A stretch of DNA of 64,000 nucleotides from a virus. Its lineage: Duplodnaviria > Caudoviricetes. The notes beneath the pieces were generated by a model. It was not told the origin of the DNA. It did not search any database and was given only the letters and a program-made list of their open reading frames with translations. The stretch spans positions 20,736-84,735 of IMG/VR virus record IMGVR_UViG_3300020183_000042; one strand, written 5' to 3'. Shown here piece after piece: positions 45,644 through 64,000 of the stretch. The translations under genes and the position numbers were made by a program. Every line of letters starts with the position of its first letter. Position 1 is the stretch's first letter.

Positions 45644-45684
45644 AAGTTAGTTACAACACACACCATTATTATACATCAAGCCTG

Positions 45685-47257: not shown

Positions 47258-47277
47258 ACACAGCCTCCTACTGTATA

Positions 47278-47496: not shown

Positions 47497-47591
47497 ACCC
47501 TGCTCTACAATCTTTTACCATATTACTCTGAATACAACGCCAGAGTTTACCATTCTTATGAACGGCCACACAATTCATAGCCCCATGCTTT

Positions 47592-48384: not shown

Positions 48385-48738
48385 TTGATTTGTTTCCCAT
48401 TTGTGGAATGATAGCCCTAATCGATACTCTGATTATAAGTTTTTGTGGGTTTGATACCCAATAGACGGCTATGAATTATGGTCAAATTTCGATGCTCTGG
48501 AGTCAATTTCTCGTGAAGATAATCACCAATGACCCTCTTCAAGAGAGCAATTTCTTTATCGGTCAACAATACATTCTTATACATTTTCATCTATACCTAT
48601 TAAGAAAAATACCACTACCCCTAGTAGAGTATACCACACCAATAGGGGTTGTCAAGAGACTTTATCGGCCATTTCCCAGTTTGGCCTTTAATCTTTTTTT
48701 TACCACCGGCAAATTCAATAAGTAAAAATACGCCGATT

Positions 48739-48942
48739 TTATTGAGAAACAGATGATATCCCCTCATTTTCTGGCACTTTTGGCTCAGAGTAGGATTCAG
48801 AAGATGTATAAATGGGGGTTTTATAAGATAGATTGATATAATAATTAACAATATAGTGACTAGAAACCATAGCAAACAGTGTTACTAGACCCACAACAAT
48901 TAAACCTTTGATAAAAGGCTTGTGAAATTCTTCAGTTATCAT
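48739..48942 (-). CDS. Small membrane protein
   Basis: AGGAG RBS; one TM segment. Confidence 0.55.
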   Translation of the reverse strand: MITEEFHKPFIKGLIVVGLVTLFAMVSSHYIVNYYINLSYKTPIYTSSESYSEPKVPENEGISSVSQ

Positions 48943-49360
48943 TTTTGCTCCTATTTATATAGATGGTGGAAATTATGCAGAAAAGAAGTGTGAGTGATAA
49001 AAATATCCAACAAAGAGTTTCATTCATGGTCGTCAGTCTCTTTGGAATATGAGTAGTCTAAGTAGGAATAAAGGGAACCCCAAAGTATTAGACAAATTGA
49101 AATTATAATGGGGCTGTAATCCCTCATAAGACCCAGGGATTATCGTTCATACTTTCTTTTCCTATCTGGAAAATTCTTCATAAAATCTGGATACTCGTTG
49201 GTTACTGTGGGAATAGTGGGGCTTGGTTTCAATAGAAGATATAGAATCCAAATATAAATACTAGTAGTAAGAACCAATCCCAAAAATAAAATCATCTTAA
49301 TCTCCTTTTTTCACTGACTATGAGCAACTGGGGCAAACTTATTAGTTGGGGTAAAACAAA

Positions 49361-49543
49361 TTATTTCTCCTCTTTCTTATATTCTAGTTTTAGAACGTGA
49401 CTAGTATCTTCGGTGGTAATATTTCTAATCTCCAGTATTAAAAGTTTGTTTTGTATATTCTCCCTATTTTCCTGAATGAGTTTATTAATATCTGCTATAA
49501 TTTTTTCTGCCGCAATAGACCTATCTAGTTTATAGACTATCAT
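49361..49543 (-). CDS. Hypothetical protein flanked by two 45-bp elements
   Basis: ORF lies exactly between the copies at 49357 and 49549. Confidence 0.55.
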   Translation of the reverse strand: MIVYKLDRSIAAEKIIADINKLIQENRENIQNKLLILEIRNITTEDTSHVLKLEYKKEEK

Positions 49544-50083
49544 ATCTCGCTGACTACGACCAAAAAAATCAAACCTAAAAGGTTGGCTGGGACAGGTGGG
49601 ACTTCCTGCTAAGAATATGATAGATCAAATGATCTCTCTCTGGAGCGTGAAAAATTTTATGCGGCTCACTATGATTTTAAGTTTTAAGTATTAAAATAAA
49701 TTTGAATGATCGTGGAAACTCTTATCATAAGAACACACATAAAAAGTTTTTTCACTTGACAGATTCTTGGCGATCTTGTATATATTATGCAGAGGGGAAC
49801 AGTAATATTCTACTAACTACTCTTAATAACTCTCATCCCCTGCATAACACCAAGAACGATAGACAAACAAATAACAGCGGTAATAATTAATCTCCTTAAC
49901 AAAGGCAAAGTTGACAAACGGCGCGCACCCTCCCATTATACAGTATCGGCCTGTGAACGCAAACCCTTGTGGGACCAGGGGTTATATAACTGGCTGGATT
50001 TGGGCCAATTTACGAAAGTTTTTGAGATGATGATAAGTGGTGTATAGTATCTATAGAGATACCCTACATTCGGAGAATCATTC

Positions 50084-50407
50084 ATGGCATTTAATCCCAG
50101 CCCCACAGGATATTTTAACGGAATAGTAACATTAGCATCAGGTGACTCGACTCCTAGTAGCGGAGTATTCTTTCCATATTCTGCATTTGAAAGTTATAAT
50201 GCTAGTACTAGTGGTGATATTAGACAGTTAGTATATTCATTTATTGAGAATATCTATGATGAATATGATTCTCTAGCATCAGAAGATAAACCATCAAAAA
50301 TATCCATATCAAGAACATCCACAGTTCCAGAAGATAATATTATTCGTAATACTTATAATCTAGTTATTAATCTAGCATATGAAGGATTACTGGTTGTTAA
50401 TGAGTAA
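50084..50407 (+). CDS. Hypothetical protein (possibly virion-associated), opposite strand
   Basis: GGAG RBS; TGGTGTATAGTAT motif upstream; Ser/Thr-rich. Confidence 0.7.
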   Translation: MAFNPSPTGYFNGIVTLASGDSTPSSGVFFPYSAFESYNASTSGDIRQLVYSFIENIYDEYDSLASEDKPSKISISRTSTVPEDNIIRNTYNLVINLAYEGLLVVNE

Positions 50408-50627
50408 TATCTTTCATTGGCGACCATTCGGGATAAATCATTTTATACAAACCAGGAAAAGTATCCATTAAATCCCTTCTCTGCTTAATTTCCATAGTAC
50501 TAAGCAAACGCTCAAGTACAACCCTAATCTGATAGGGACTCATATTATCCAGACTAGGTTTATGATCTTTTCCCACTAGGCTATAATCAGTTCTCATTTT
50601 CTTTCCTTTCTGCATAAATAGAACCAT
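50397..50627 (-). CDS. Hypothetical protein
   Basis: AAAGGAA RBS before MRTDY. Confidence 0.55.
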   Translation of the reverse strand: MVLFMQKGKKMRTDYSLVGKDHKPSLDNMSPYQIRVVLERLLSTMEIKQRRDLMDTFPGLYKMIYPEWSPMKDITH

Positions 50628-50951
50628 ACCTTTGGCTGACTACCAGCAACGGCAGCAAATCCGCTAGATTAGGTAAAACAGATTCTTATTTTTTGCAGCA
50701 AAATAAACAGTAGAATAGTGCTGCTATCATAATAAAGATTTCCAAACTAATCTAGTCTCCTAATATTAGTCATAAACCCAGTAGTACCAACACCTTACGT
50801 TACATTGTATCGTCAAACCAGTGGACTTGCAAGCAACCTTTTTGAGATTCTTTGACTAAGTTTCGTAATCGTTACCTTAAAAAATTGTAACTTGACATTT
50901 TGGCAGGCGGCGCGCCCGGTCTGCCATTTTGGCAGTCAACATATGTACGCA

Positions 50952-50986
50952 GAAAAGCCGCCGCAGGATTTCTCCCACGGCGGCTC
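50952..50986 (-). terminator. Intrinsic terminator after the DUF932 gene
   Basis: AGCCGCCGTGGG-AGAAA-TCCTGCGGCGGCT-TTTCT. Confidence 0.75.
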
Positions 50987-51013
50987 TCACCGCGACACCC
51001 CACGAAAGGAAGG

Positions 51014-51958
51014 TCAAATAGCGTTGGCAAACTCTAGAGCACTCTCCAACGCCTTATTATTCTCATTAGCATTTTGACCGAACCACAAACTATCGAGACG
51101 ATTATCGGTGGTACGACCCTTACCATAGTTAAGATATTCATTGAAGCCATTATAAGCAGCCCACCAAGTACCAGCCACACCAACAGCACTCTGCTTCGGA
51201 CCCTCAATACGAGCCAGAATATCGTCCATAATATTACGGGTACGAGTCTTAATATCCTCGTCAGCACCCTTAATATTCAGCACAATCTTAACATACTTCT
51301 CAATATCCTTCTGGTTGAACTGCTTGGTAGCCAGGAAACGATACTGTTCCGCAGTAGCCTCAAATCCAGCGTTAATATTGTCCATAACATCACGCACCGT
51401 TTCCAGATTCTTCTGGCTGGAGCGGGTATGACGAATACGGATCAGTTTACTATCATTATGCTTGTGGGCATAAGACAGCGTATTAACACACACAACACGA
51501 ATCGGGGTATAACCCACGCGAATAGCAGTCGAGCCGTCGTGACTATTACTTAGCAGGATAAACTTGCTGACCTCATCACCGCGAACAATCTCGCTGTTAT
51601 CACGATTCAACTGAGCAAGTACCCAAACCTTCTGACCGCTATGAAGCGATCCGGCAGTATGAATAGCACACTCATTAGCATCCAGAAATGGCTGGAACCA
51701 ATCAAAAGCATCCTTATTCTGGAGCGGGGTATAACGCGGACCCACAACACCCAGGATGCTACCATCGGTCTTACGATAGGTTGCACGATGGTTAACGGGT
51801 GTACCGTCAACAGTCTGCAAATCCTTCAGTCCGACTTCCCAATCCAGACCAGCCTCGACAATAGCGTCGTTAATCGTGACGCCCTCATCAACCTTGTTCC
51901 CCAGACCGTGCCAGGGAGTCTCACCGACAAACATCATCTTCTCAACAGCAGCAGGCAT
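51014..51958 (-). CDS. DUF932/DUF945 phage/plasmid protein (TIGR03299-like)
   Basis: PWHGLG, AGLDWEV, LGVVG.RY..LQN..AF, AGSL..G..VW, LL.NSHDGS, RVVC.NTL, T.WAAYN. Confidence 0.88.
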   Translation of the reverse strand: MPAAVEKMMFVGETPWHGLGNKVDEGVTINDAIVEAGLDWEVGLKDLQTVDGTPVNHRATYRKTDGSILGVVGPRYTPLQNKDAFDWFQPFLDANECAIHTAGSLHSGQKVWVLAQLNRDNSEIVRGDEVSKFILLSNSHDGSTAIRVGYTPIRVVCVNTLSYAHKHNDSKLIRIRHTRSSQKNLETVRDVMDNINAGFEATAEQYRFLATKQFNQKDIEKYVKIVLNIKGADEDIKTRTRNIMDDILARIEGPKQSAVGVAGTWWAAYNGFNEYLNYGKGRTTDNRLDSLWFGQNANENNKALESALEFANAI

Positions 51959-52087
51959 AATCAACTCCTTCGTGGTTAGTGTCACTCGCTTCGATGCACT
52001 GATTCTACCATAGGTTATCGGCAAGTCAACAGGGCGGCTTGAAAGTTTTTTTCTGCCATTTTGGCAGCCGGGCCGGCCGCTCTGCCA

Positions 52088-52594
52088 TTATGGCAGTTCG
52101 GTAACATTCAGGAGAGGAACTCCCAAATCACGTTGGCACAATTTAGAACCATCAATGTTAGAGCGATAAGCACACTCATCCGGCATATAGCAATAAACTC
52201 CAACACATTTTGCCATTGGGATTTCTTCTTTGATAAGATTTTTAATACGACGAACTGTTCTTCCACTACAGATGAGATCATCAATAATGATATAACGATA
52301 GGGAGATACTCCCTCAATTTTAAAAGAACTATAACATCGTTCATGTTTTCTAATCACAATAATATGCTTATCAAGTAATTCTGCGATTTGTGGAACCACC
52401 ATCAATCCGCTAGTACCACAGCACGCGATACTATCAAAATCATTGATTATTTTTCTAAGATTACAAACAGCACGAATAATAATCTTGTTTCGTGTTTTAT
52501 GATTCAGAATAAGAGAAGTATAGGAAGAACCCTGAATATATCTACCATCATTCATTTTACGATGAGCATCAATATCAGAATCAAGAATATTCAT
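52088..52594 (-). CDS. Phosphoribosyltransferase domain protein
   Basis: G.SG, IRK, IIIDDLICSGRT PRPP-binding loop. Confidence 0.8.
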   Translation of the reverse strand: MNILDSDIDAHRKMNDGRYIQGSSYTSLILNHKTRNKIIIRAVCNLRKIINDFDSIACCGTSGLMVVPQIAELLDKHIIVIRKHERCYSSFKIEGVSPYRYIIIDDLICSGRTVRRIKNLIKEEIPMAKCVGVYCYMPDECAYRSNIDGSKLCQRDLGVPLLNVTELP

Positions 52595-52597
52595 AAA

Positions 52598-52689
52598 AGC
52601 GGATGGTACGATTTGAACGTACTAAGAAAGGAAGATAAAGCGTATTATTGCTTATAAATAGAATACTTGTCCCACCAAGTTGCATCCGC
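52598..52689 (-). ncRNA. tRNA-like RNA with no recognisable anticodon arm
   Basis: Perfect 7-bp acceptor GCGGATG/CATCCGC; D-like arm CTTG-GTGGGA-CAAG; T arm GTACG-TTCAAAT-CGTAC; ~43-nt AU-rich middle. Confidence 0.65.
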
Positions 52690-52699
52690 CGAGAAAAGG

Positions 52700-52876
52700 T
52701 TATTCGTCCGAAAGTTCATCCATTATGTCGTGATAATAACAGTCAAATTCCCGTTCATTAGAATAGTAGTAATCATACTCATCATCAGAGTAAATATCCT
52801 CGTCATCGTCCTCATAGAGAGCATCACTGTCCTCTACAATACGATCATAATCATACTCATATTCATCATCAAACAT
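52700..52876 (-). CDS. 58-aa extremely acidic, Tyr-rich protein
   Basis: Hand-translated MFDDEYEYDYD...; AAGGAG RBS; promoter upstream. Confidence 0.7.
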   Translation of the reverse strand: MFDDEYEYDYDRIVEDSDALYEDDDEDIYSDDEYDYYYSNEREFDCYYHDIMDELSDE

Positions 52877-52927
52877 AAGCCTTTTCTCCTTTATCCTATT
52901 CTACACCAAACGGGCCAAACTGTCAAG

Positions 52928-52998
52928 TAGGGGTGGAAGGTAATGCTCCTTCTTCAATAGATTAAAAGTCTATTGCATCACTTTAATGCTTCGCCCCC
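52928..52998 (-). tRNA. tRNA-Lys(TTT), degenerate (non-canonical T loop AGCATTA, A8)
   Basis: ATAGA-CTTTTAA-TCTAT anticodon arm; all four stems form. Confidence 0.65.
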
Positions 52999-53117
52999 GC
53001 AGGGAGATCCAACTATATCATAGGTTATCGGCTTGTCAATCCCGCTACTTCAAAGAAAATTTCTGTCATTTTGGCTGACTACAGCCACCCTAGCCAAATC
53101 TGTAGGATTAGGTAAAA

Positions 53118-53204
53118 CGGAATCTGAGGGATTCGAACCCCCGGAGGATTTTAACCCTCGGCGGTTTAGTAAACCGCTGCCTTAAACCACTCGGCCAAGA
53201 TTCC
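53118..53204 (-). tRNA. tRNA-Ser(ACT), long variable arm
   Basis: GGAATCT/AGATTCC-G; GCGGT-TTACTAA-ACCGC; GGTTCGAATCC. Confidence 0.88.
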
Positions 53205-53207
53205 AAA

Positions 53208-53280
53208 CTGCCCAAGTAGGACTCGAACCTACAACCCAGCGGTTAACAGCCGCTTGCAACTACCATTGTGCTACTGAGCA
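53208..53280 (-). tRNA. tRNA-Asn(GTT)
   Basis: AGCGG-CTGTTAA-CCGCT; GGTTCGAGTCC. Confidence 0.9.
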
Positions 53281-53309
53281 ACACTCGTAACTCTAACGTC
53301 AGCCTCCGA

Positions 53310-53380
53310 TTCCGGGACTACGATTTGAACGTAGAATAAAGGGTCCAAAGCCCTCTGTGATACCGTTTCACCATCCCGGA
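53310..53380 (-). tRNA. tRNA-Gln(TTG)
   Basis: TCCGGGA/TCCCGGA; GAGGG-CTTTGGA-CCCTT; GTTCAAATC. Confidence 0.87.
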
Positions 53381-53452
53381 AGCCAGCAGAGGGAATCGAA
53401 CCCCCGACAGGTTGTTTACAAAACAACTACTCTACCACTGAGTTAGGCTGGC
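53381..53452 (-). tRNA. tRNA-Thr(TGT)
   Basis: GTTGT-TTTGTAA-ACAAC; GGTTCGATTCC. Confidence 0.88.
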
Positions 53453-53487
53453 GAGACTACATATAATACTCATCACGCCAGTGCTTG

Positions 53488-53826
53488 TCAACGGCGGATC
53501 GGGTACGCAGTCGCTTGGGCCTGTTGTCCATAACTGTGTCCCGATACTCCTTGTGTCCCGTAGGGATTTCCCAACGCTTCTTGACCTTGATCTGGATATT
53601 CTCGTATTTTCGGCGGGAAGTCATACCATTGTCCGTTTTCGTGTTGATAAAAAACTTTTCTAAGGTTAGGATCGTAAGCCATCAGACAGTATTGTACAGG
53701 ATAGGTTGGTTTTGTCAATACGGGTTTTTGAGGCAAAGGGATTTTAATATCACCCTTTTGATAATCTTTCAATCCTGTATATGCTAATCCCAACAATGCT
53801 ACCAATACACCTATCCATTGTATCAT
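53488..53826 (-). CDS. Membrane-anchored hypothetical protein
   Basis: GAGGA RBS before MIQWIG; N-terminal TM; preceded by a sigma28-only promoter. Confidence 0.65.
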   Translation of the reverse strand: MIQWIGVLVALLGLAYTGLKDYQKGDIKIPLPQKPVLTKPTYPVQYCLMAYDPNLRKVFYQHENGQWYDFPPKIREYPDQGQEALGNPYGTQGVSGHSYGQQAQATAYPIRR

Positions 53827-53947
53827 ACCCGATCCTCTTTGCAAGCGCCCTCTGGAAACCATACCATTTTATCGGCAAACCAGCAGCAAAAACTTTAACT
53901 GCCATTTTGGCAGCTCGGCCGCGCCGCCTGCCGTTTTGGCAGAATAA

Positions 53948-54019
53948 TAGCCCCAGGAGGAATCGAACCTCCAATAACTGCTTAGAAGGCAGTTGTTATA
54001 TCCATTTAACTATGGGGCC
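53948..54019 (-). tRNA. tRNA-Arg(TCT)
   Basis: ACTGC-CTTCTAA-GCAGT; GGTTCGATTCC. Confidence 0.9.
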
Positions 54020-54021
54020 AT

Positions 54022-54064
54022 AAAAGCCGATAGCCGCCAGTATCACTACCAGCGGTCTATCGGT
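54022..54064 (-). terminator. Hairpin/terminator-like structure before tRNA-Arg
   Basis: CCGATAGACCGCTGGTA-GTGA-TACTGGCGGCTATCGG-CTTTT. Confidence 0.6.
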
Positions 54065-54084
54065 ATTATAGCATATTGTTATAC

Positions 54085-54333
54085 TCAGGCAACAGTCTCC
54101 GCTTCAACCTTGCTGTTGTGAGCATCACCAGCCTGCTTCGCGGTCACACCAGTGACCCTAGCACGCCACACCTTATAACCCTGCTCGCTAAACGCCTTGA
54201 CTTCGCCAGCCTTGACGTTAGCATGAACGTCACCCGGAAGTGCATCACTCAGGCAGGACGAAATCGAATCCACAACAGTATCACGATCCAGTTCATCGGC
54301 CACAACATCGACAATAAAAGAAAACTTCTTCAT
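54085..54333 (-). CDS. Hypothetical protein
   Basis: GGAGG RBS before MKKFS. Confidence 0.7.
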   Translation of the reverse strand: MKKFSFIVDVVADELDRDTVVDSISSCLSDALPGDVHANVKAGEVKAFSEQGYKVWRARVTGVTAKQAGDAHNSKVEAETVA

Positions 54334-54649
54334 AGCAAACCTCCAAGTTAGTGTTAGTTCCAAACCAGTAAACCAATCATATCACGAACCATATCATTTG
54401 TCAAGGGGCCAATCTGAACTTTTGTAGTGTTGAGATCAGTTGGCTTCTTGTCGTGTGATGCTATCATTCTACCATAGGTATCGGCACTGTCAACCTCCCT
54501 ACATGAATATTTTTTGGGTGCCATTTTGGCAGCTCGGCCGCACCGCCTGCCGTTTTGGCATTTGGCTTTATGCTAGGCGTTCAGTACACAACATTCACAA
54601 CCACAAGCGGCCAAGCTCACCATCTCACGAATCGTCATGCCAACATTGA

Positions 54650-55057
54650 TCATGTTCTTTCCTCCAAAACGTAAACTTGTTTGCCTTGTGTAATCAGAGA
54701 GTCATATTGTGAATCGTCCCATGCGAACTCTCCACAATCACTTTCTCGTCGCCAGTAAACATCGCGGATTGGATTGTAATACAACTTCTCTAGATTGTCA
54801 ACACCAATCTCATTATTTATGATAACCGTATCACACTTTACCCAACCAGCCACATCCTTCACACCAGCCTCATGAACTTTCTTAGCCTTATTCACTTTAT
54901 TTACCAGTTTGCAACTCAACATCTCTAACTGATAAAGAGCCGGATCATAATAAAACTCTTGCAGTTTCTTTCTACCACACATGGCCTTGACTTGCCAGTG
55001 CATATAGTTTGGCCCACGAGCCAGATGAAATCGTACTTCGTAGTGTGTTCGTGTCAT
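54650..55057 (-). CDS. Hypothetical protein, leaderless
   Basis: RFHLARG.N..HWQV motif; ATG 6 nt after TATACT -10. Confidence 0.7.
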   Translation of the reverse strand: MTRTHYEVRFHLARGPNYMHWQVKAMCGRKKLQEFYYDPALYQLEMLSCKLVNKVNKAKKVHEAGVKDVAGWVKCDTVIINNEIGVDNLEKLYYNPIRDVYWRRESDCGEFAWDDSQYDSLITQGKQVYVLEERT

Positions 55058-55149
55058 GCGACTAGTATACCTTATTGGTTATTGGTTGTCAAGACTATAC
55101 ACTTTCGCTGACTATCGCCAAGACCGCAAATCCGTAGGATTAGGAAAAA

Positions 55150-55227
55150 CAATGTCGGCTTCCGCCATACTCGACCAGCATTTCAGATAGCCTCTTTTGA
55201 TATCATTGTGGCTATCTCCGTACATTG
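55150..55227 (-). ncRNA. Candidate multi-stem small RNA
   Basis: CAATGT/ACATTG closing stem; AGATAGCC/GGCTATCT; GGC-GGAA-GCC; own promoter; 45-bp element abuts 3' end. Confidence 0.5.
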
Positions 55228-55336
55228 TTCGTTCTAAGTATACCCTATAGATCGGCATTATCAATAGGATTCTTTAGTGCCATTTTGGCAGATCGGCCGC
55301 GGCTCCTGCCGTTTTGGCAGGAGTTATTCTATTCCA

Positions 55337-55585
55337 TTATTTTCCCCTCCCAATAATCAAACACGGAGTACCAACCTTCTCATCCGTAAACTTCACACAC
55401 GCATGAGGCCCATAATACCAAGCATTATTCTGTGAGAAATCGAATACAATCTCTTCGATCTTCAACCCCACATCATTATACCCACCCTCATACAGACCCG
55501 ATGGCCAAGAAATCCCACCAAGAGTAAGAACCCGCATATCGCCCGGATAGTTCTTCAACTGCTCAATAAGTTCAGAAACGGTCAT
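55337..55585 (-). CDS. Hypothetical protein (MTV.ELIE.L..YP.D..V...GYEGG family)
   Basis: Common phage N-terminal motif. Confidence 0.65.
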   Translation of the reverse strand: MTVSELIEQLKNYPGDMRVLTLGGISWPSGLYEGGYNDVGLKIEEIVFDFSQNNAWYYGPHACVKFTDEKVGTPCLIIGRGK

Positions 55586-55625
55586 TTTACAGTCTCTTTC
55601 TGCTGTTTCTGCCACTCTAATACCA

Positions 55626-55760
55626 TTACCGATACTTGAGACGTATCATAACATCGCGAGCAGACCAGAGAATATCCCAAAATCGCTCATCACGATACAT
55701 CTTCCAATCTTCCTCAGTAATCATACCTTTCATGTACCATCTAAACATCTTCTCGTACAT
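55626..55760 (-). CDS. 44-aa hypothetical protein
   Basis: Hand-translated; AAAGGA RBS. Confidence 0.5.
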   Translation of the reverse strand: MYEKMFRWYMKGMITEEDWKMYRDERFWDILWSARDVMIRLKYR

Positions 55761-55789
55761 TGTTTTTCCTTTCTATATACTTGTGTTGA

Positions 55790-55898
55790 TCGTGGTGGGG
55801 ACGCTATCCCCCATAGACTAGTATCGGTTCCCAGAGCATAACCGGCTCATTCGTCCCCGATAGGTTATCTAATCTAGTCCCGAGCCATGGACCCACGA
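55790..55898 (-). ncRNA. Candidate pseudoknotted structured RNA
   Basis: TCGTGG/CCACGA, GACTAG/CTAGTC, TATCGG/CCGATA, GAGC/GCTC; loop GGTTAT complementary to bulge ATAACC; 3' hairpin TGGGG..CCCCA. Confidence 0.55.
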
Positions 55899-55906
55899 AA
55901 GTTTTT

Positions 55907-55988
55907 GTGATGGTTGTCTCTCTACCCTAAAGGCGAGGGTTGGTTTTACCCGACAACTAGGTTGTGGCCTCCACTTTGCCAGCACCAC
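55907..55988 (-). ncRNA. Candidate structured RNA
   Basis: GTGGTG/CATCAC, TGGC/GCCA, GTTGTC/GACAAC, ACCCT/AGGGT; begins ~20 nt after a promoter -10. Confidence 0.5.
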
Positions 55989-56118
55989 TTTGTTTTGTCT
56001 TACTCAATCATTCTACACTCTAGTATCGGCTTGTCAACAGCAAGAATCCAAGAAAAATGTTGTGCCATTTTGGCAGTTGTCGCGGCCCATCTGCCGTTTT
56101 GGCAGCGTGGGTTTTGTT

Positions 56119-56583
56119 TTATGTTTCTACTTCATCAGTAAAAAACTCGTCAAGGTTGTAATCTTCCCACACTCTAACAGGAATCACACCCTTATCATTT
56201 CCATATTCCGTACACAGATCATCACCATCATGCCAAATACCACAATAGCCGATTCCAGGCTCAAAATAACTAGCATCAACCATAAACCCCAACCTATCCA
56301 ACTCCTCATACAATCCAATGGGAGGACTCCAAGCACTATCAAAACTCATGGTAGCCTCATTATCCACAATCGTAGGATGTAGTCCGTGAACTTCACCATT
56401 ATCACTACCAATATCCCACTTGGTTCCCCAGTTTTTGATATTCCAGTTGTACCAATCTTCACCCTCTGGCATCGGCAAATAATGTTCACAAGCCTTACCC
56501 TCCTTGAAGGCATGAACAAACTCCATAACCTTAGACCGATCCTCATGGCTAATCTTCAACTTGTTCAAGCACCAGTTAGGCAT
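56119..56583 (-). CDS. DUF1281/YubB ferredoxin-like domain protein
   Basis: MPNWC.N, WYNW...NWGTKWD, F.SAWSPP, Y.EPG..YCG. Confidence 0.8.
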   Translation of the reverse strand: MPNWCLNKLKISHEDRSKVMEFVHAFKEGKACEHYLPMPEGEDWYNWNIKNWGTKWDIGSDNGEVHGLHPTIVDNEATMSFDSAWSPPIGLYEELDRLGFMVDASYFEPGIGYCGIWHDGDDLCTEYGNDKGVIPVRVWEDYNLDEFFTDEVET

Positions 56584-56627
56584 AACTTTCTCCTTTGGTT
56601 CGATTCTACACTAGTCGTTATCGGTTG

Positions 56628-57103
56628 TCAAGCGGCCAAAACTTTACCAAACATCTTTTTTCCCACACGCAAATCTCTGTGGCTATATTTAGAACCAACA
56701 TATTTAGCAACAGTTCTAGTATCCATAACCCTAGCGGTCAAACCCTCTGGGCTAACAAACACCATAACCAGTTTGTGAAAGTTATTGGGGCAAATATGCT
56801 GAAACTTATAAGTATACTTGATTGTTCCACCAACAATGGTCATTCTGGCCAGACTAGACTTGACCTCTACCTTGCGACCATTCACAAGCATATCAAAAGA
56901 GTGACTACCACCAATATAAGAAACAGTGTGACCAGCATCCTTATAATAATCCCTAATCATACGTTCAATCGCACCACCCCTTACTGACTACTCATCCTAG
57001 ACAGTCTATAGGCCAACATATTCTTTTTCGGGCAAAAAATACTTTTCTTGTGGAATCCACGAACTTCGCACAAAACCTTATTCAAATGAGTTGTAGTAAA
57101 CAT
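56628..57103 (-). pseudogene. PD-(D/E)XK nuclease-like gene with a frameshift near 56983
   Basis: AAAGGAG-ATG at 57103 runs 40 codons to TAA; another frame carries RGGAIE...FDMLVNGRKVEVKSS. Confidence 0.6.
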
Positions 57104-57208
57104 AGTGATCTCCTTTGGGCGTATTCTAATACTAAATATCGTCTTGTCAACAGATAAAACTTTATTGCCATTTTGGCAGTCGGGGCGCCCGGTCTGCCGT
57201 TTTGGCAG

Positions 57209-57454
57209 TTATTCATCCTCTTCGAATAGTTCGGGCTGTGATGCCAAGATAACATCCTCTGTGCGAATAACAGTAGTAGTAGGTGTAGCAGTTAGATAAT
57301 CTCTCATACCACATTCATCAACATAAAAATATTCATCGATAACATCATTCTTATTACAACCCATAAGAGTTCTAACAGCCGCCTCCAAAGGATCGCAGCA
57401 ACTAGTAATAAGTTCAGCAGTATTACTCTTTACATAAAACTTAGGCATGATCAA
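57209..57454 (-). CDS. Hypothetical protein
   Basis: GGGAG RBS; coupled. Confidence 0.6.
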   Translation of the reverse strand: MIMPKFYVKSNTAELITSCCDPLEAAVRTLMGCNKNDVIDEYFYVDECGMRDYLTATPTTTVIRTEDVILASQPELFEEDE

Positions 57455-57711
57455 CTCCCTAGACTAATCAAAACAAAACCATCATCATTATAACACTCGT
57501 CATAATCTAATGTGTCATTGACAATCTCGGCATCATAAAGAATAGTATCTAAATCTCGATTGGTCATAAGAGTATCATAGTTAGTACCAAAACTGATATC
57601 ACTATCACAAACTGCCTGAATAACCCTATCGTAGTCTAAATCGTTATGCTTACACACGTCTTTGAGCATCAAATAAGTATAACTATAACTTCTCATTATT
57701 TTGTCTTTCAA
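57451..57711 (-). CDS. Hypothetical acidic protein
   Basis: Coupled ORF. Confidence 0.55.
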   Translation of the reverse strand: MKDKIMRSYSYTYLMLKDVCKHNDLDYDRVIQAVCDSDISFGTNYDTLMTNRDLDTILYDAEIVNDTLDYDECYNDDGFVLISLGS

Positions 57712-58412
57712 TGGGCGGGAAACAAAACATTAGCCAGACCACGCACACACAAGTCACATGATATACTATCCTTCGTGCCAGTGCAAGTGATTGTTGCTCG
57801 ACCACGACGGATTTCCGGGCAGACCACAAACTTGGTCGCGTTCAGTACCACCAACTTCGGCAGACTAGCCCTCCAAGCATCAGCCTTTTTCTTGCTACGG
57901 GGACGTTTCGGTGCAATCTTTTCGTCGCTATCACACCACGCGAACAACTTGAATCCTTGTGCTAGAGCCTCGCCCATATCGTTATCGTCGTGAACACTAG
58001 CATACACGGCCATATACTTGTCGAGACTAACAAGCCGACTATCATAAATATGGGTATAAAACCACATATCGGGCAGACTATCACCATCAGCAAGAATACT
58101 CTCACACGCCCATGTCACATTAGCAACATATTCTACGTCAAGTTCGCCGTTGAGAAACCAGTCACCCCGCTCGTGCCAACGGATACTCTTTTCACGACGC
58201 TTCGCATCCAGAATCATAGCACGGATTTTGTTTTTCTCTGTGACTATGTTAGCAAACCCCGCGGTACGGGCGTTTTTATACTGATTCTCGGTAGCCTCGG
58301 CATAGCAGCCGTTGCCGAGATAGTCACAATCGGGCGGACAAGTATCGCCAACGGGACGCGACACCACAACGCAACCCTTGCCCAACTTATCATTTCCGTC
58401 TGCGGTTTTCAT
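57708..58412 (-). CDS. Gp88-like Cys-rich protein (radical-SAM-related fold suspected)
   Basis: N.KLG, TCP..C.....CYA, IRWH..GD, W.YT, CP...C..C.LC, F..H; start MKTAD at 58412. Confidence 0.7.
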   Translation of the reverse strand: MKTADGNDKLGKGCVVVSRPVGDTCPPDCDYLGNGCYAEATENQYKNARTAGFANIVTEKNKIRAMILDAKRREKSIRWHERGDWFLNGELDVEYVANVTWACESILADGDSLPDMWFYTHIYDSRLVSLDKYMAVYASVHDDNDMGEALAQGFKLFAWCDSDEKIAPKRPRSKKKADAWRASLPKLVVLNATKFVVCPEIRRGRATITCTGTKDSISCDLCVRGLANVLFPAH

Positions 58413-58601
58413 ATTTGTTTCTCCGTGTCTCTCGATTCTACAGTGTGGTATCGGCTTGTCAACACACAAACTTGAGCATAAAAAAAGATTTTGTTTGGCA
58501 CAAGGTTTGCTCGTTGCCATTTTGGCAGGGCGGCCGGCCGAGCTGCCATTTTGGCTGACTATCGCCACGACTGCCAAATCCGTAGGATTAGGAAAAACAA
58601 A

Positions 58602-58674
58602 TAGCCCCACGGAGGATCGAACTCCGATCTCCGGGATGAAAGCCCGGTATACTAAACCATTATACTATGGGGCC
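58602..58674 (-). tRNA. tRNA-Glu(TTC)
   Basis: GGCCCCA/TGGGGCT; CCGGG-CTTTCAT-CCCGG; AGTTCGATCCT. Confidence 0.88.
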
Positions 58675-58823
58675 GACACTCGCTCTACCCAAACATTATC
58701 ACCGTGTTTTTTTTGAGCAAGTAGATAAGCGTTCATTTGAGAAAGAGACACAACATATCCAACAAAGCGATTATTCTTGAAAACTCTCCAAATATAACCA
58801 CTATAGCAAAACGCGGTATTCAT
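58665..58823 (-). CDS. 52-aa leaderless ORF whose stop lies inside tRNA-Glu
   Basis: ATG 6 nt after TAGAAT; hand-translated MNTAFCYSGYIWRVFKNNRFVGYV... Confidence 0.55.
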   Translation of the reverse strand: MNTAFCYSGYIWRVFKNNRFVGYVVSLSQMNAYLLAQKKHGDNVWVERVSAP

Positions 58824-58927
58824 ACGGTTATTCTAACAGTTAGTATCGGCTTGTCAAGAGGCAAAACTTTAGTGTCATTTTGGCAGTTTTCGCGGCCGGC
58901 CTGCCAAGATGGCAGAGCCAGAACCCC

Positions 58928-59332
58928 TCAAAAGAGGAGGCTGGCCAAGCCGGTCTTGAAAGCCACCCCACCCAGGAGGGGCCGACGCACGTTAGTGGTA
59001 CGCTCCGCATAGAAGTTGCGAATCTTACCATCGGGCGTTTGAGCAGTCACCAAATGCTGGCTACGCTGAAACGTCGGATCATCCCTACGATAGCGACTCT
59101 TACGATTGAGTCGAGCAAGATAATCCGCGGAAAACTCGTGAACCTCAAGCACCTTTGCCATGAACCGCTCACGATCACCCGTGACCGGCTGCACATACTC
59201 AAAGTTATACACACCACCAACCTTAGCGTTGGTCAGACTATCGTGAAGACCAGAAAAAAGATGAAAGCACACAAAAGCCACAACACCAGCAACCAACCCA
59301 CAACCAATCGCAACCATAGTCATCGTATCCAT
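58928..59332 (-). CDS. Membrane-anchored protein, WYL-like beta domain
   Basis: N-terminal TM; F.Y......R.....V; G.IRNFY..R. Confidence 0.6.
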   Translation of the reverse strand: MDTMTMVAIGCGLVAGVVAFVCFHLFSGLHDSLTNAKVGGVYNFEYVQPVTGDRERFMAKVLEVHEFSADYLARLNRKSRYRRDDPTFQRSQHLVTAQTPDGKIRNFYAERTTNVRRPLLGGVAFKTGLASLLF

Positions 59333-59575
59333 AGTATTAGCCTTTCGTTGTTATATCCCAAACTCAATAAAACTAGTATACCACACTTATCGGCGTTTGT
59401 CAAGCGTCAACTTCACAAAGTTTAGTTGTCAAACGAAGAAAATATTTTTGCCATTTTGGCAGATCGGGCGCCCAGGCTGCCATTTTGTCTAACTACAGCC
59501 ACCCTAGCAAATCCGGGAGGATTAGGAAGAACAAGCCCGCCGCATCAATCCCTACTCTTTGGGGGTCGGCGTTTG

Positions 59576-59926
59576 TCAAGCGTCAACTTCAACATTTTCC
59601 AAAAGATGCTCCGCGATTTCTAGCCAGTTAGTTACAGAAAGAGCAGCACCAAGCAAGTCTGCCCATACACTCGCGGTCAACTTTGTTTGTTCAAGTATTT
59701 CGTCCTTGGCTTCTTCGTAATAATCCCTCAGCCTATCAGCCATTAGATACACGGCCTCGTCCATGCGTGACATACCGATATCGGTATTGTCGCGTGTGTG
59801 GTTGTGGTATACATCTTCCGCAACTTCTCGCCAGTAATCGTGGGTACCTTCTTCGTTGTCCATCCACAGATTCACAACCCACGTTTCGTAGTTAGTCCAG
59901 CCGTTGTAGTTCTTGTCGTTGTCCAT
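59576..59926 (-). CDS. Conserved phage protein (YNGW.NYETW family)
   Basis: YNGWTNYETW...LW.DN, NW.EIA; AAGGAG RBS. Confidence 0.75.
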   Translation of the reverse strand: MDNDKNYNGWTNYETWVVNLWMDNEEGTHDYWREVAEDVYHNHTRDNTDIGMSRMDEAVYLMADRLRDYYEEAKDEILEQTKLTASVWADLLGAALSVTNWLEIAEHLLENVEVDA

Positions 59927-59990
59927 TCTTTCTTTCTCCTTGGTATCCCTCAAGTCTACTCTATATATCGGTTTGTCAACCCCCGAAACT

Positions 59991-60248
59991 TTACTTTTGC
60001 AAGTATTCGATTTCCTGGCCGTTAGCGATCATGGAAGCATACAGTTCGATGCGACGATCCTTTTCCCGCTTTTCGATTTGATGATCCGTTTCGATTCTTT
60101 CGCGTCGGTCACACTTAGCATCCAATGCGGCCAGCGTCACACTATCGGTGCGATTATCGCGGAAGTCCTCGGGCAGCCAACTATTCGGCACCACAATACA
60201 ATCTTTGATAATCCGCTGAAACTCCGCCATCAGTTCGTAGCCGTTCAT
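59991..60248 (-). CDS. Hypothetical protein (similar to 62742..63116)
   Basis: GGAGG RBS before MNGYE; FQR.I and R...(Y/L)A motifs shared. Confidence 0.6.
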   Translation of the reverse strand: MNGYELMAEFQRIIKDCIVVPNSWLPEDFRDNRTDSVTLAALDAKCDRRERIETDHQIEKREKDRRIELYASMIANGQEIEYLQK

Positions 60249-60562
60249 GGTTTCCTCCGTTGTTGTGTGGATTATACAGATGGAAAAGTGGATGTCAACT
60301 CGAAAAAAAGCAGTAGCAAATACTGTGCCAAAGTGGCAGATCGGGCGCGCCACCCGCCATTGTGGCAGATGGTCTTTTTTAGATTAGGGATAGAAAGTAG
60401 GTCATAACAATAAAACCAGCCAGAAATCCCACAATATTTTCAATCATTATTTTCCCTCATTGGAAAAACCAAATCAGAAACAAACCAACTACTAACAATG
60501 CCAGCAACAAATCCCACACCTACTAGTACCCAGTTGATATCGACCATCCTTGGCCCCTTTCT

Positions 60563-60772
60563 TTATTTTTTATATCCAACCCAGAAAACTTCGCCCCGAT
60601 CATTAGTCATTTCCACAGGATTATCCAGAAAATCCCTACGAATCCTCAGATGCTCCCTGCGTCGTTTCCATCCGATGATACTATCACAAATGGCCCCACA
60701 AATCAATAGTAAAAACTCCACAAGGCCCACAGCCATTATTGGAAAAGCGATGAATAGTACAATATATTTCAT
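60563..60772 (-). CDS. Small membrane protein
   Basis: ATGA coupling; TM segment. Confidence 0.55.
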   Translation of the reverse strand: MKYIVLFIAFPIMAVGLVEFLLLICGAICDSIIGWKRRREHLRIRRDFLDNPVEMTNDRGEVFWVGYKK

Positions 60773-61080
60773 CCCTGCACCACCATATTTTCCATAAAAG
60801 GATATTCCTTGCCGTTGATTCTCACAAACCATTCGTATTTTCGCTGGTACACTCTCACCGGGCTATACTGGTTTATTCTATCCTTGGTTGTGGCCGTTTG
60901 CCATCCCCCCGTTTGCAGGGTATAGGTATTGTCAGGATGAATCTTCACCACATAGGTGTTGTGGAGCAAAATGCCCACGCTGCCGTCACTCAGAATCTCA
61001 GCGTAGGTGTTGTTGCCGATCTTCCGGCTATCCTTGTTCTGCTTGCCCCGAACCATATTGACCGCTTCGGTGTGAGTCAT
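60769..61080 (-). CDS. Conserved phage protein
   Basis: K..NNTY, LH.T.V, GGW.T.TTK.RIN. Confidence 0.7.
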   Translation of the reverse strand: MTHTEAVNMVRGKQNKDSRKIGNNTYAEILSDGSVGILLHNTYVVKIHPDNTYTLQTGGWQTATTKDRINQYSPVRVYQRKYEWFVRINGKEYPFMENMVVQG

Positions 61081-61220
61081 TTCAACGCTCCGTATAGTTA
61101 GTGAGTTCATTTTTTCCTCTTTCCTTTATATCGGTATTCTACAGCCCAAACTTTACTTGTCAAGCACTTTTCGCTGACTACAGCCACACCAGCCAAACCC
61201 GGAGGGTTAGGTGAGACAGT

Positions 61221-61373
61221 CTACTCCTTCCAGTTGTCGTTGTATTCGGGATCGGTAGGGTCGGGATAGTATTCAAGGATTGGGGTACAATGCTCAAGGC
61301 AGCAAGCACAGAAATCGTAGCCTTGAACCTTGTCGCCGCAGCAATCGGAAACTATCACTTCAATCATTCTCAT
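61221..61373 (-). CDS. 50-aa Cys-rich protein (SDCCG...C..C.EHC)
   Basis: Hand-translated; paralog of 63187..63381. Confidence 0.6.
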   Translation of the reverse strand: MRMIEVIVSDCCGDKVQGYDFCACCLEHCTPILEYYPDPTDPEYNDNWKE

Positions 61374-61556
61374 GGTCAACTTCCTTTCTTCTATCTTTAT
61401 ATCGGTATTCTACAGCGTAAACTTGAGATTGCAAGCGAAATTTTCAAATATAATTTCATGCCAAATAAAAAATATTTTTGTGGCACGATATTTGCTATGT
61501 CTGTCAATATGGCAGATCGGGCGGCCGCGCTGCCATTTTGGCAGTCGCGGTTTTGC

Positions 61557-61775
61557 TCAATAATCGTTATCCTCCCCGAAATAGCCGTAGTCCTCGTCGG
61601 TTCCCCAACCCGCCGACTCCATCGCACTATCATGGTCGCCATCCGTGCTGTCGTCGTAGAAATCGTCGTAGTCGTCGTAGTTAGGATCGTCGTTGTCGTG
61701 CGATTCGTCGTCGATCCACGGCCAAATCGTACGCTCCGCCATATCATCAAATCGGTCACAAGAATCATCGCTCAT
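61557..61775 (-). CDS. 72-aa highly acidic protein
   Basis: GAGGAG RBS; SAG.GTDEDYG motif; 28/72 D+E. Confidence 0.7.
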   Translation of the reverse strand: MSDDSCDRFDDMAERTIWPWIDDESHDNDDPNYDDYDDFYDDSTDGDHDSAMESAGWGTDEDYGYFGEDNDY

Positions 61776-61802
61776 CGTATTCTCCTCATCGGGTGAGTCA
61801 TC

Positions 61803-62015
61803 TCAAAAAACATCCCAAACAACGCTGTGCTCATCGACCATCGGCTCAGGATACAACTCATCCCACAGCCCCGCGACTTCCGCATAATCAAACGGACAGC
61901 AATCGGGCTCGTCAATCGGCTCGACCATACGCTCATCGACCAGTTCCGCGAGGATAGCGTTCACCGTGTCGGTATCTTCAAGCAAACCCATCATTCGAGG
62001 AAAGTGATTCATCAT
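61803..62015 (-). CDS. Acidic hypothetical protein
   Basis: AGGAG RBS; promoter upstream. Confidence 0.65.
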   Translation of the reverse strand: MMNHFPRMMGLLEDTDTVNAILAELVDERMVEPIDEPDCCPFDYAEVAGLWDELYPEPMVDEHSVVWDVF

Positions 62016-62203
62016 CGTTTCTCCTGGGGTGTACTACCGTTATACAGTCTATATCGGTGTTTGCAAGCGGAAAAAATAGTGGAAAAAAAGTTTTTTGCGG
62101 CACAACATTTGCTGATGCTGCCATTTTGGCAGTTCGGGCGCGATTTCTGCCATTTTGGCTAGCTGTCGCCATTTTCGCCAGCCGATAGGATCGGATGAGA
62201 CAG

Positions 62204-62419
62204 TCAACTTACTCCCATCCATGAGGCGTTTTCTACACAATAATCATAAAACATATCGTTCAACATATCACGATAGTTACTATCGGTCAACCGGCGACGA
62301 TCCATCGTAAACTCACACTCAGCATAGATTCTACCGTCCGGAGTTGCAAGGAAAGAAATCTGGTAACTCTCGCTTCCCCAGATCTGACGAATCGCATCCC
62401 GAATCTTATTCGTTTCCAT
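62204..62419 (-). CDS. Hypothetical protein
   Basis: AGGAGG RBS; promoter upstream. Confidence 0.65.
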   Translation of the reverse strand: METNKIRDAIRQIWGSESYQISFLATPDGRIYAECEFTMDRRRLTDSNYRDMLNDMFYDYCVENASWMGVS

Positions 62420-62741
62420 CTTCTATTTCCTCCTGCTAGGTATATCGGTATCCTACATTCGGTCTCTTGAATGTCAAATAGAAAAAATCGCTCAAAAAAA
62501 AGATTTTGTTTGGCACAAGATTTGCTCTGCCTGCCATTTTGGCAGTTTTCGCGGCCTGCCTGCCATTTTGGCAGCTTTTTGACTGGCTGACTGTCATTAT
62601 TGTCAGCCGATAGGATCGGCTAGGACAAACGGGGGGAGTATCCCCTATAAGGTGCCATTTTGGCAGATCGGGCGCGCCGCCTGCCATTTTGGCAGAGACC
62701 CCTCATTGGTGGGGGAGCGGCACCATACCCCTAGTGGGGGG

Positions 62742-63116
62742 TTATTCCCCATCCCACCCAAAGGGGGAGACTTCCTCTCCGCTGGCGAGAATCGCACCAT
62801 ACTGTTCGGCCAGAGCCTTTTTTCGCTCATCGGAACCGGGCTTTCCAACCTTGATAATCATCGTATCATCACCCCCCTTGTAGCGGGGGTCAACCCTCTC
62901 GACCTTACGCTTGCCCATGCGACGCAACGCCTTGCGATTGAACTTGAGAACCTTTTCGGTCATCACCTTACGCTGTCGATCACCGACACCATAAACATAG
63001 TCTACGCCGTCGATCACCCGATCATCGGGCACGTCGATAGCGTCGGGAATAGCGATTCCATCGAACCAGTTGATGATAGCACGCTGAAAATCACGCAGAA
63101 TCGGACTAGTTGCCAT
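62742..63116 (-). CDS. Hypothetical protein
   Basis: GGAG RBS before MATSP; GKPGS.ER..AL..QY motif. Confidence 0.65.
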   Translation of the reverse strand: MATSPILRDFQRAIINWFDGIAIPDAIDVPDDRVIDGVDYVYGVGDRQRKVMTEKVLKFNRKALRRMGKRKVERVDPRYKGGDDTMIIKVGKPGSDERKKALAEQYGAILASGEEVSPFGWDGE

Positions 63117-63186
63117 GATGCTTTGCTCCAAAGGATTATTGACTGTACCAAAAAACTTTTTTGACCACAACCCCCACCATGGGGGA

Positions 63187-63381
63187 CTACCATCCATTCT
63201 GCCGACAAGTCTCATCCCACGAGTCCTGTTCACGACGCTGGGAGCGGGTCATCGGCTCGTCGCCAAGGCACCACTCATCGCGGGCCGCATCGTACCCGTC
63301 GTCCGAAACATCACAATGCTCGCCACAACGCGAGCAAATATCCTGAAACCGAACCACAGCACCACAGCAATCACTTAGCAT
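63187..63381 (-). CDS. Cys-rich small protein (SDCCG...C..C.EHC)
   Basis: GGAG RBS before MLSDCC; promoter upstream. Confidence 0.65.
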   Translation of the reverse strand: MLSDCCGAVVRFQDICSRCGEHCDVSDDGYDAARDEWCLGDEPMTRSQRREQDSWDETCRQNGW

Positions 63382-63642
63382 TTTCAGTCTCCGTTTCTTT
63401 CTTTCTTTCTTTCTATATCGGATTATACGGTCTGAAACTTGAAAAGCAAACCGAAAAAAATCGGGAGAGAAAAATATTTTGTGGCACAGTATTTGCTGGC
63501 GCGATTTTGGCACAAGATTTGCTAGCCTGCCATTTTGGCAGTTCGCGCGGCCGATCTGCCATTTTGGCAGTCTGGCTGACTGTCATTATGGCAGCCAGCC
63601 GATAGGATCGGCTAGAACACCCCCCTAGAGGGGTAGAGCCCC

Positions 63643-63855
63643 CTACTTGAGGGGGTATGCTCCGATCCAATCAATATGACGGATCCACTCCCTCGCGTGG
63701 GGGGTTCCGTGCCTCTTGCGAATCAAACGGAGTTGACTGGCCAACTCCCCCCTATAGCGGGGGTGGCTCCCTCGCTTGATCCATTCGCCAATCCACCGAT
63801 TCGCGGGCACAGCCACAAGCAAACCAACGTCGAAAACTATCATTTGATCCTCCAT
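63643..63855 (-). CDS. Hypothetical protein
   Basis: ORF in cassette orientation. Confidence 0.5.
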   Translation of the reverse strand: MEDQMIVFDVGLLVAVPANRWIGEWIKRGSHPRYRGELASQLRLIRKRHGTPHAREWIRHIDWIGAYPLK

Positions 63856-64000
63856 TGTGAGCCCCCCAACGGGGGGGTGTGGTCGATCCATCCATCGGGG
63901 AAGCCTAGAATATCGCGGGCTGCTCTGTGGTCCACGTAATACAGTCTTCTAAATAGATCGACCTGTAGGCTGGATTCTGAACTTTTACAGTTCGACCGTT

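Follow-up and report, generated by a model that had tools for sequence, protein, structure and literature searches.

Sigma-54-like sites beside twin palindromes at presumed early promoters of uncultured freshwater phages

The window analysed here is the last 64 kilobases (kb) of the IMG/VR virus record IMGVR_UViG_3300020183_000042, which has 84,735 bases and a CheckV completeness of 61%. It carries a cluster of short sequences that resemble the -24/-12 sites of the bacterial sigma factor sigma-54 (RpoN), and these sigma-54-like elements are the subject of this report. All coordinates are window positions unless a relative is named; because the window is the last 64 kb of the record, its end is also the end of the contig. 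The sizeable open reading frames (ORFs) of the window all lie on the - strand, and GC content is 26-38% in roughly the first 50 kb and rises to 41-51% over 50-64 kb.

The GC-richer part (50000-64000) exceeds positions 1-50000 by 8-15 points. The same contrast is found in complete relatives (in G003, 178988-186823 plus 1-9000), so it does not reflect an assembly chimera. This part is a row of small - strand genes, transfer RNA (tRNA) genes included, each of which follows a near-consensus sigma-70-type promoter. Promoter-like sites number 70 against 26.8 expected, and the - strand carries every one of the best 16, which score 11-12 of 12 matches. No enrichment is seen for terminator-like sites (15 against 10.9). 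Judging from its promoter type and layout, the row is presumed to be the early region.

The window also contains 16 twin-palindrome nodes. A twin palindrome consists of two TGCCA-N3-TGGCA boxes, 29 base pairs (bp) apart; such boxes occur 33 times in the window against 1.24 expected. The sigma-54-like motif, TGGCACN5TTGCT, matches exactly six times, against 0.01 expected from 100 shuffles, and all matches lie within 58496-63523. A seventh copy departs from it at one position and keeps the GG-N10-GC spacing. The copies are as follows, where distances are in nucleotides (nt) and "core" is the 13-bp palindrome core.

58496..58511, + strand: exact element (TGGCAC-AAGGT-TTGCT), pointing away from the - strand gene 57708-58412; 3 nt to the core at 58515, 33 nt from the -35 at 58462
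60315..60330, - strand: exact element, pointing toward the gene; its TGGCA is a half-site of the palindrome 60326-60338, and the -35 TTGACA at 60298 follows 16 nt downstream
61481..61496, + strand: exact element; 5 nt to the core at 61502, 46 nt from the -35 TTGCAA at 61434
61458..61465, - strand: -24-like half only, TTTGGCAT and then GAAATTATA, without TTGC; this variant recurs in relatives
62098..62113, + strand: element with one mismatch (CGGCAC); 5 nt to the core at 62119, 31 nt from the -35 TTGCAA at 62066-62061
62511..62526, + strand: exact element; 5 nt to the core at 62532, 33 nt from the -35 at 62477
63482..63497, + strand: exact element, the promoter-proximal member of a tandem pair with an offset of 26 nt; the -35-like TTTGCT at 63450-63445 is 31 nt away
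63508..63523, + strand: exact element, the palindrome-proximal member of the pair; 4 nt to the core at 63528

The original prediction, an earlier note on this window, had listed six exact + strand copies. Five of these (58496, 61481, 62511, 63482 and 63508) are confirmed, and the sixth, 62098, proves to be the mismatched one. The - strand copy does use the TGCCA half of its palindrome, as had been described. No further copy of TGGCAYN5TTGCW occurs in the whole 84.7-kb contig. When up to two mismatches are allowed, 21 matches are found against 11.5 expected; thus only the seven clustered copies stand out.

The + strand copies next to a palindrome stop 3-5 nt short of its core (58511/58515, 61496/61502, 62113/62119, 62526/62532, 63523/63528). 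Their position just before the twin palindrome therefore agrees with the original prediction, and the distance of 5-7 bp given there does not. The back-to-back arrangement with a sigma-70-type promoter is borne out as well: copies that point away from the gene lie 31-46 nt from a - strand -35, and the single copy that points toward it, at 60315, lies 16 nt away. Six of the nine nodes at or above 58515 bear the motif, and none of the seven below. No + strand copy is followed by a sizeable + strand ORF of its own; what lies downstream is palindromes and sequence antisense to the upstream - strand gene.

The other parts of the motif-bearing nodes are listed below.

58515..58556, no strand: twin palindrome adjoining the 58496 copy
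60326-60367, 61502-61543, 62119-62160, 62532-62573 and 63528-63569, no strand: further twin palindromes, from the box scan
58435..58462, - strand: sigma-70-type promoter TTGACA-16-TAGAAT, from the promoter scan
60271-60298, 61407-61434, 62450-62477, 62039-62066 and 63422-63450, - strand: equivalent promoters; the -35 hexamers of the last two (the 62098 and 63482 nodes) were read directly from the sequence and not from the promoter scan
58463..58495, - strand: A/T-rich tract that separates motif and -35, similar to an UP element and forming one insertion module with the motif

Read along the gene strand, a node begins with the end of the upstream gene, followed by hairpin elements, palindrome 1, a GC-rich spacer of 14 nt and palindrome 2. 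In some nodes the motif comes next (as AGCAA-N5-GTGCCA), and then follow the A/T tract, the -35, the -10, the ribosome site and the ATG. In nodes that lack the motif, palindrome 2 lies just 14-25 nt from the -35. The palindrome overlies the transcription start predicted from the motif, 3-6 nt after TTGCT. The -24 half sits about 29 bp (28-30) from the TGGCA of the next palindrome, which is the period of the twin, and the nodes are clearly paralogous.

Several other elements recur at the nodes. The sequence CCGATA(T/A/C) is nearly universal in them (for instance at 58454, 62448 and 63421 on the - strand), with 298 distinct contexts in 60 loci. It directly follows either the -35 or the -10, with TCAAG or TAAAG before it; together they resemble a sigma-28 promoter whose spacer is 1-2 nt longer than the consensus. 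A two-hairpin element of about 45 nt is conserved at 62586-62625, 63574-63617, 58553-58598, 59487-59530 and 61173-61218, after the ends of genes or tRNAs and upstream of the twin palindromes. It matches no Rfam family, and its stems vary between copies by compensatory change (AGCCGAT/ATCGGCT against CCTAATCC/GGATTTGG). Short CCCC-loop-GGGG hairpins are frequent at gene ends (62690-62760, 63620-63900, and 8590-8690 of the relative L070), some with T runs on the non-coding strand.

Relatives were collected by scanning viral contigs for the twin palindrome, which gave a family set of 65 viral loci on contigs of up to 224 kb. Exact motif copies are present in 52 of these loci. An exact copy lies within 90 nt of 52 of the 209 distinct twin nodes, and 157 are without the motif. 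Where an exact copy is present, it points away from the gene in 48 nodes, mostly 3-6 nt after palindrome 2, and toward the gene in 5, of which 3 share a palindrome half-site. The same spacing of 3-6 nt from the palindrome holds for 41 of 57 away copies.

For a closer look at the motif itself, 123 distinct family copies near palindromes were chosen at no more than one mismatch (70 exact and 53 with a single mismatch). The mismatches are confined to positions -26 (5), -23 (6), -21 (25, all C to T) and -11 (17), and leave GG, the A at -22 and TTGC untouched. Decayed palindromes with an unconserved TTGC, which the original prediction had named as an explanation that would refute it, do not account for the matches: all 123 copies keep TTGC unchanged. 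It follows TGGCAY at a spacing of exactly N5 in 141 cases, against 1-3 at each other spacing from N2 to N8. The spacer occurs in 33 distinct forms; nevertheless its first base, at -20, which had no part in the selection, is a purine in all 123 copies and all 33 forms. In alignments of orthologous upstream regions the motif is present in 12 of 15, 8 of 11 and 2 of 8 nodes. The remaining nodes show a clean deletion of the motif together with the distal A/T tract, and those with the motif keep GCAA and GTGCC around a variable spacer.

The family consensus is TTTGGCAY-R-N2-AT-TTGCW. A run of T before the GC of a sigma-54 site is held to strengthen closed complexes. The sigma-54 consensus given in the available text of PMC12316311 is TGGCACN5-7TTGCT. 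In a hand count of the 29 intergenic Salmonella sites listed in the accessible part of PMC3844500, the base at -20 is a purine in 29, that at -21 is C or T in 28 and that at -11 is A or T in 27. The spacing and the degeneracy of the family copies match those of sigma-54 sites, so the original assignment to the RpoN-type consensus stands. These comparisons support the view that the motif is real and under selection, with the consensus, spacing and degeneracy of a sigma-54 site.

The arrangement of the copies at promoters is varied. Within the family, 92 distinct sigma-70-type promoters have a copy no more than 140 nt upstream. If A denotes an away copy and T a toward copy, with the promoter-proximal copy first, the arrangements are A (51), AA (19), T (9), ATA (5), AT (5) and TA (3); 107 of the 129 copies point away and 22 toward. 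The proximal away copy lies 30-33 nt from the -35 at 44 promoters, 41-46 nt at 10, 52-56 nt at 16 and 62-66 nt at 5. Toward copies sit 16, 26-27, 35-36 and 47 nt from it. The -35 hexamer TTGCAA is found at 17 of 97 motif promoters and is outside the top 8 hexamers of 152 motif-less promoters. Two kinds of insert were seen beside the copies. About a dozen nodes with gaps of 52-63 nt (e.g. L036, L028 and L037) carry an inverted TGAA/TTCA module, GGGGAAGTTTTCACCAA, between motif and A/T tract. In L052 and L020, four tandem units that end in ATCCTAAC (ATCCTAAT in the third) stand between a toward copy and the promoter.

One subclade carries inverted pairs, in which TGGCAC-N5-TTGCT is followed after 3 nt by AGCAA/TGCAA-N5-GTGCCA. 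With so short a gap, each predicted start falls inside the partner. Two holoenzymes could presumably not sit on such a pair together, and neither would be able to transcribe without crossing the other.

The place of the motif in the genome can be seen in the complete relative G003, which has 186.8 kb and a terminal repeat of 126 bp. Its twin palindromes lie in one block of raised GC, about 16 kb long, that wraps the record ends and whose genes all run in one direction. Near 9 kb it gives way to a divergent structural block, which opens with its own TTGACT-16-TATAAT promoter and whose first genes include a 213-amino-acid protein and the terminase. Four motif copies are located in the nodes nearest the boundary and point to it; the boundary also encodes a 75-amino-acid protein. 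The outermost of them lacks a twin palindrome, and a terminator-like hairpin with a T run comes after it on the same strand. Each of five complete relatives has 2-9 matches to TGGCAYN5TTGCW. One boundary cluster of 3-8 kb holds 27 of the 29 copies, of which 24 point toward the structural block, and a reversed-pattern control gives 0. About 2 chance matches were computed over the 930 kb of these five relatives, which fits the 2 outliers.

The 213-amino-acid protein is encoded by the first sizeable gene of the structural block of G003 (L070 9133-9774, + strand). It reaches 22.3 bits for Sigma70_r2, for which the cut-off is 24, and is possibly the phage's own late sigma factor. As a reader of the motif it was rejected, since the motif is absent from the structural block. 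The same block of G003 contains a frame of 5389 codons (37982-54151, + strand) and others of 3031 and 1837 codons, none of them annotated.

The motif is also found beyond the palindrome family. A scan for the extended motif alone gave at least 120 stretches; among the matches listed, to which the counts in this paragraph refer, are 97 new loci, 3 of the palindrome family. Of the 94 non-family loci, 41 contain 2-10 copies of TGG[CT]A[CT]N5TTGC[AT] and no TGCCA-N3-TGGCA boxes. These loci share the inverted pairs, the -24-only variant and similar promoters, and their palindromes differ. At 68 non-family promoters with an upstream copy the arrangements are A (33), T (16), AT (8), TA (6), TT (3), ATA (1) and AATA (1), and the away orientation is found in roughly 6 in 10 nodes of other clades. 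The base at -20 is a purine in 93 of 100 other-clade copies that do not fit the scan pattern.

Two claims of the original prediction can now be narrowed. That the sites point away from the genes holds as a bias (6 of 7 copies in the window, and most copies in the family and in other clades) and not as a rule. That they are docked onto the twin palindromes is correct as a statement of adjacency. However, 157 of 209 palindrome nodes have no motif, and the motif occurs in phages without these palindromes; docking is therefore not a defining feature. Because the motif outlives the palindromes, its reader should be more conserved than the reader of the operators, and its presence beside different palindromes in other clades fits a host factor of universal specificity.

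A different virus-classed contig, L109 (222 kb, GC 0.34), has seven sigma-54-like elements on one strand at 2690-11683, each 30-45 nt before an ATG; no sigma-70-type promoter was seen there by eye. These elements look like working -24/-12 promoters. A match to Sigma54_activat (PF00158) in L109 was rejected as an activator, because it belongs to a ClpB-like chaperone.

Outside the nodes, the window has a full-length transfer-messenger RNA (tmRNA) gene at 33881-34237 on the - strand (Rfam, 103 bits; tag peptide GNNQLALAA) and nine tRNA genes, five of which are clustered at 52928-53452. An Rfam scan of 28000-64000 matched only tRNAs and this one tmRNA. The locus is present in 24 sequencing runs, all of DNA from lake or fresh water, with no RNA runs among them.

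Sigma-54 holoenzyme needs no activator to form stable closed complexes. The reading favoured here, tentatively, is that of an unfired docking site for host sigma-54 holoenzyme, which would act in cis on the neighbouring sigma-70 unit. Under this model the element would be an optional cis-module of one subclass of presumed early promoters in large uncultured freshwater phages. The module would consist of a -24/-12 sequence of high-affinity type and an A/T tract, inserted between the operator-like twin palindromes and the -35. Host sigma-54 polymerase, or sigma-54 itself, would dock there as a closed complex that no activator fires. The docked complex would then be a barrier or modulator between successive early units and would make no transcript of its own. 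The motif, its selection, its placement and its indifference to orientation are shown by the sequences, whereas the identity of the reader, the early use of the promoters and the barrier or modulator effect are parts of the model that we infer. The use of both orientations at equivalent places, the inverted pairs and the want of a downstream ORF favour a bound site over a promoter, and the discrete classes of gap to the -35 favour an effect in cis. For non-promoter sigma-54 sites, repression or interference has been proposed in PMC3844500, as far as its accessible text goes. A wider form of the model, in which several freshwater phage clades park unfired host sigma-54 polymerase at early nodes as an insulator and as a replication-linked sigma-54 trap, is doubtful.

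That sigma-54 is the reader of the element is probable, if not strongly so, given the sequence evidence and the constancy of the motif across clades. If the promoters are indeed the first to be used after infection, the reader would have to be present in the cell beforehand.

Several observations nevertheless weigh against sigma-54 in this role. Searches for Sigma54_DBD were negative for the contig, for five complete relatives and for five further records that bear the motif, and no true enhancer-binding ATPase was found in the contig or the five complete relatives. The search for an activator that the original prediction had proposed was thus negative in these genomes; weak PF00158 matches, considered as candidates for an enhancer-binding protein, were rejected as RuvB. 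The only cellular bin with DNA of this phage is an oversized member of a family of 0.5-1.2 Mb genomes, and Sigma54_DBD exceeds the cut-off in none of the 31, the bin included. In the family copies TT at -28/-27, A at -17 and T at -16 are constrained beyond what sigma-54 needs. The gap classes differ by about one helical turn, which is suggestive of helical phasing and not firmer than that because the ladder stems partly from inserted modules and shared descent; a fixed, roughly phased site upstream of a sigma-70 promoter has the look of an ordinary activator site. We know of no case in which sigma-54 holoenzyme serves as an upstream activator of a sigma-70 promoter. Finally, the phage's palindromes have TGGCA as their half-site and there is a variant with the -24 half only, so a TGGCA-reading protein could be the reader.

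The host lead itself is weak. It consists of one 1.8-kb contig in the 1.8-megabase (Mb) bin G006, whose terminase is 76% identical, and the terminase is present in just 1 of the 31 genomes of the bin's family, namely this oversized bin. At least two contigs of the phage group (L069 and L085) are in this bin, which carries a bacterial label, and the bin is roughly double the size of the 30 other members of its family; this suggests that phage DNA was binned into it. A blastn search with 56500-64000 found no match among deposited phages. The DUF932 protein shares 47% identity with a protein of an uncultured phage of 595 kb that lacks twin palindromes, the terminase is 21-25% identical to terminases of Bacillus and Clostridium phages, and the polymerase reaches at most 36%; relatives so distant allow no inference of the host. 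Among known DNA-binding proteins, IHF, Fis, LexA, CRP and NtrC were tried as readers by comparing consensus sequences by eye, and none fits.

A site for another protein is a close rival, only a little less likely than the docking site. The element would then be the site of some DNA-binding protein of the host, or of a phage protein delivered or made early, which tunes the adjacent sigma-70 promoter; the likeness to sigma-54 sites would be coincidental, aided by the phage's general use of TGGCA half-sites. Much of the arrangement is what one would expect of such a site. Its place upstream of the -35 is fixed, with gap classes that step by about 10 bp in both orientations. Like an operator it is found as 1-3 copies and as inverted pairs, and it is optional at orthologous promoters. 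The enrichment of the TTGCAA -35, the TGGCA half-sites of the palindromes and the -24-only variant, the extra conservation at -28/-27 and -17/-16, and the lack of sigma-54 machinery both in the phages and in the single weak host lead point the same way. However, all 11 consensus positions, the spacing and the degeneracy (Y at -21, R at -20, W at -11) match sigma-54 sites, and a motif that stays constant where the palindromes differ would be unusual for a phage-specific operator. Likewise, elements of presumed early promoters would need to be read before phage proteins exist.

The remaining explanations keep sigma-54, or dispense with function altogether. Productive sigma-54 promoters, fired by a host enhancer-binding protein or a phage activator, could yield divergent or antisense RNAs that cross the palindromes, enter the upstream early gene and head for the structural block, and so act as a timing switch. 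This fits the 24 of 27 clustered copies that point to the structural block from the nodes nearest it, the upstream A/T tract that the module brings along, and the resemblance of the seven copies of L109 to real -24/-12 promoters. It is improbable all the same. The copies occur in both orientations and in overlapping inverted pairs, which speaks for a binding site and against the antisense promoter that the original prediction had entertained; they have no gene downstream, and the palindrome lies on the predicted start. No enhancer-like site is evident upstream of the motif, the only paired dyads being downstream on the predicted start, and no activator was found in the phage. In G003 the structural block has its own promoter, and the hairpin and T run follow the outermost copy. 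A decoy or sponge array, another suggestion of that prediction, would titrate host sigma-54 in trans during replication and so shut sigma-54-dependent host responses or free core polymerase. Such an array could well be made of consensus-grade sites that are indifferent to orientation, unlinked to genes and conserved across clades. Yet the 2-9 copies per genome are few for this purpose and restricted to a small number of nodes at one of the array's ends, and a decoy needs neither the tight placement next to palindrome and promoter nor the discrete gaps to the -35; a pure decoy is for this reason very improbable. Least credible, to the point of being nearly negligible, is a functionless origin as decayed palindromes or a by-product of cassette duplication. 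The distance of the -24 half from the next TGGCA, equal to the period of the twin, and the paralogy of the nodes would suit it. However, GG, the A at -22 and TTGC are invariant while spacer and flanks vary, the spacing is strict, and the motif is kept in clades without these palindromes.

Should sigma-54 read the element, these phages would be the first natural phage case of conserved non-promoter sigma-54 arrays, as far as the literature search goes; no report of such phage-borne arrays was found in it, at a depth mostly below full text. They would then provide a clean and repeatable system for the effects of unfired sigma-54 closed complexes. According to the accessible text of PMC3844500, the role of such complexes has been a question since many non-promoter sigma-54 sites were mapped in enterobacteria. 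The host of an abundant group of lake phages would moreover be restricted to bacteria with rpoN. If polymerase is in fact parked at these nodes, sigma-54 would have a use that is neither that of a promoter nor bacterial. If another protein reads the element, it would be a well-defined new operator.

The element can be compared with several known systems. Strong sigma-70 promoters with an upstream activator, such as rrnB P1 with Fis, combine a factor site, an UP element and a core promoter. The phage architecture has its parts in this order: a protein site whose centre is about 76 bp upstream (for the toward copy, about -60), an A/T tract and near-consensus -35 and -10 hexamers. Its gap classes, about one helical turn apart, are suggestive of a like phasing. 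It differs in that the phage site is asymmetric, is used in both orientations and has the sequence of no activator that could be named. The MotA box of phage T4 takes the place of the -35 and has a phage protein as its reader. It too is a short conserved sequence that sets one subclass of phage promoters apart, whereas the present element leaves the -35 intact and sits well upstream.

The closest likeness in sequence is to the sigma-54 -24/-12 promoters of Salmonella, as presented in the available text of PMC3844500. Both have TGGCAC-N5-TTGCW, GG-N10-GC, C or T at -21, a purine at -20 and A or T at -11, and in both the GC is preceded by a stretch rich in T. In contrast to such promoters, the phage copies mostly face away from the nearest gene, have a palindrome on the predicted start and form overlapping inverted pairs; an enhancer 80-150 bp upstream is not evident, and no activator gene was found in the phages. 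The element thus fails two defining features of sigma-54 promoters that were tested: it does not point at a gene, and neither activator nor enhancer was found. In this respect it is more like the intragenic and antisense sigma-54 sites mapped in Salmonella by chromatin immunoprecipitation (ChIP), which are likewise not tied to a downstream gene and for which the accessible part of PMC3844500 proposes repression, interference or small RNAs. Compared with those sites, which are weaker matches dispersed within bacterial genes, the phage copies are consensus-grade, intergenic and modular, are tied to sigma-70 promoters, and are repeated across clades.

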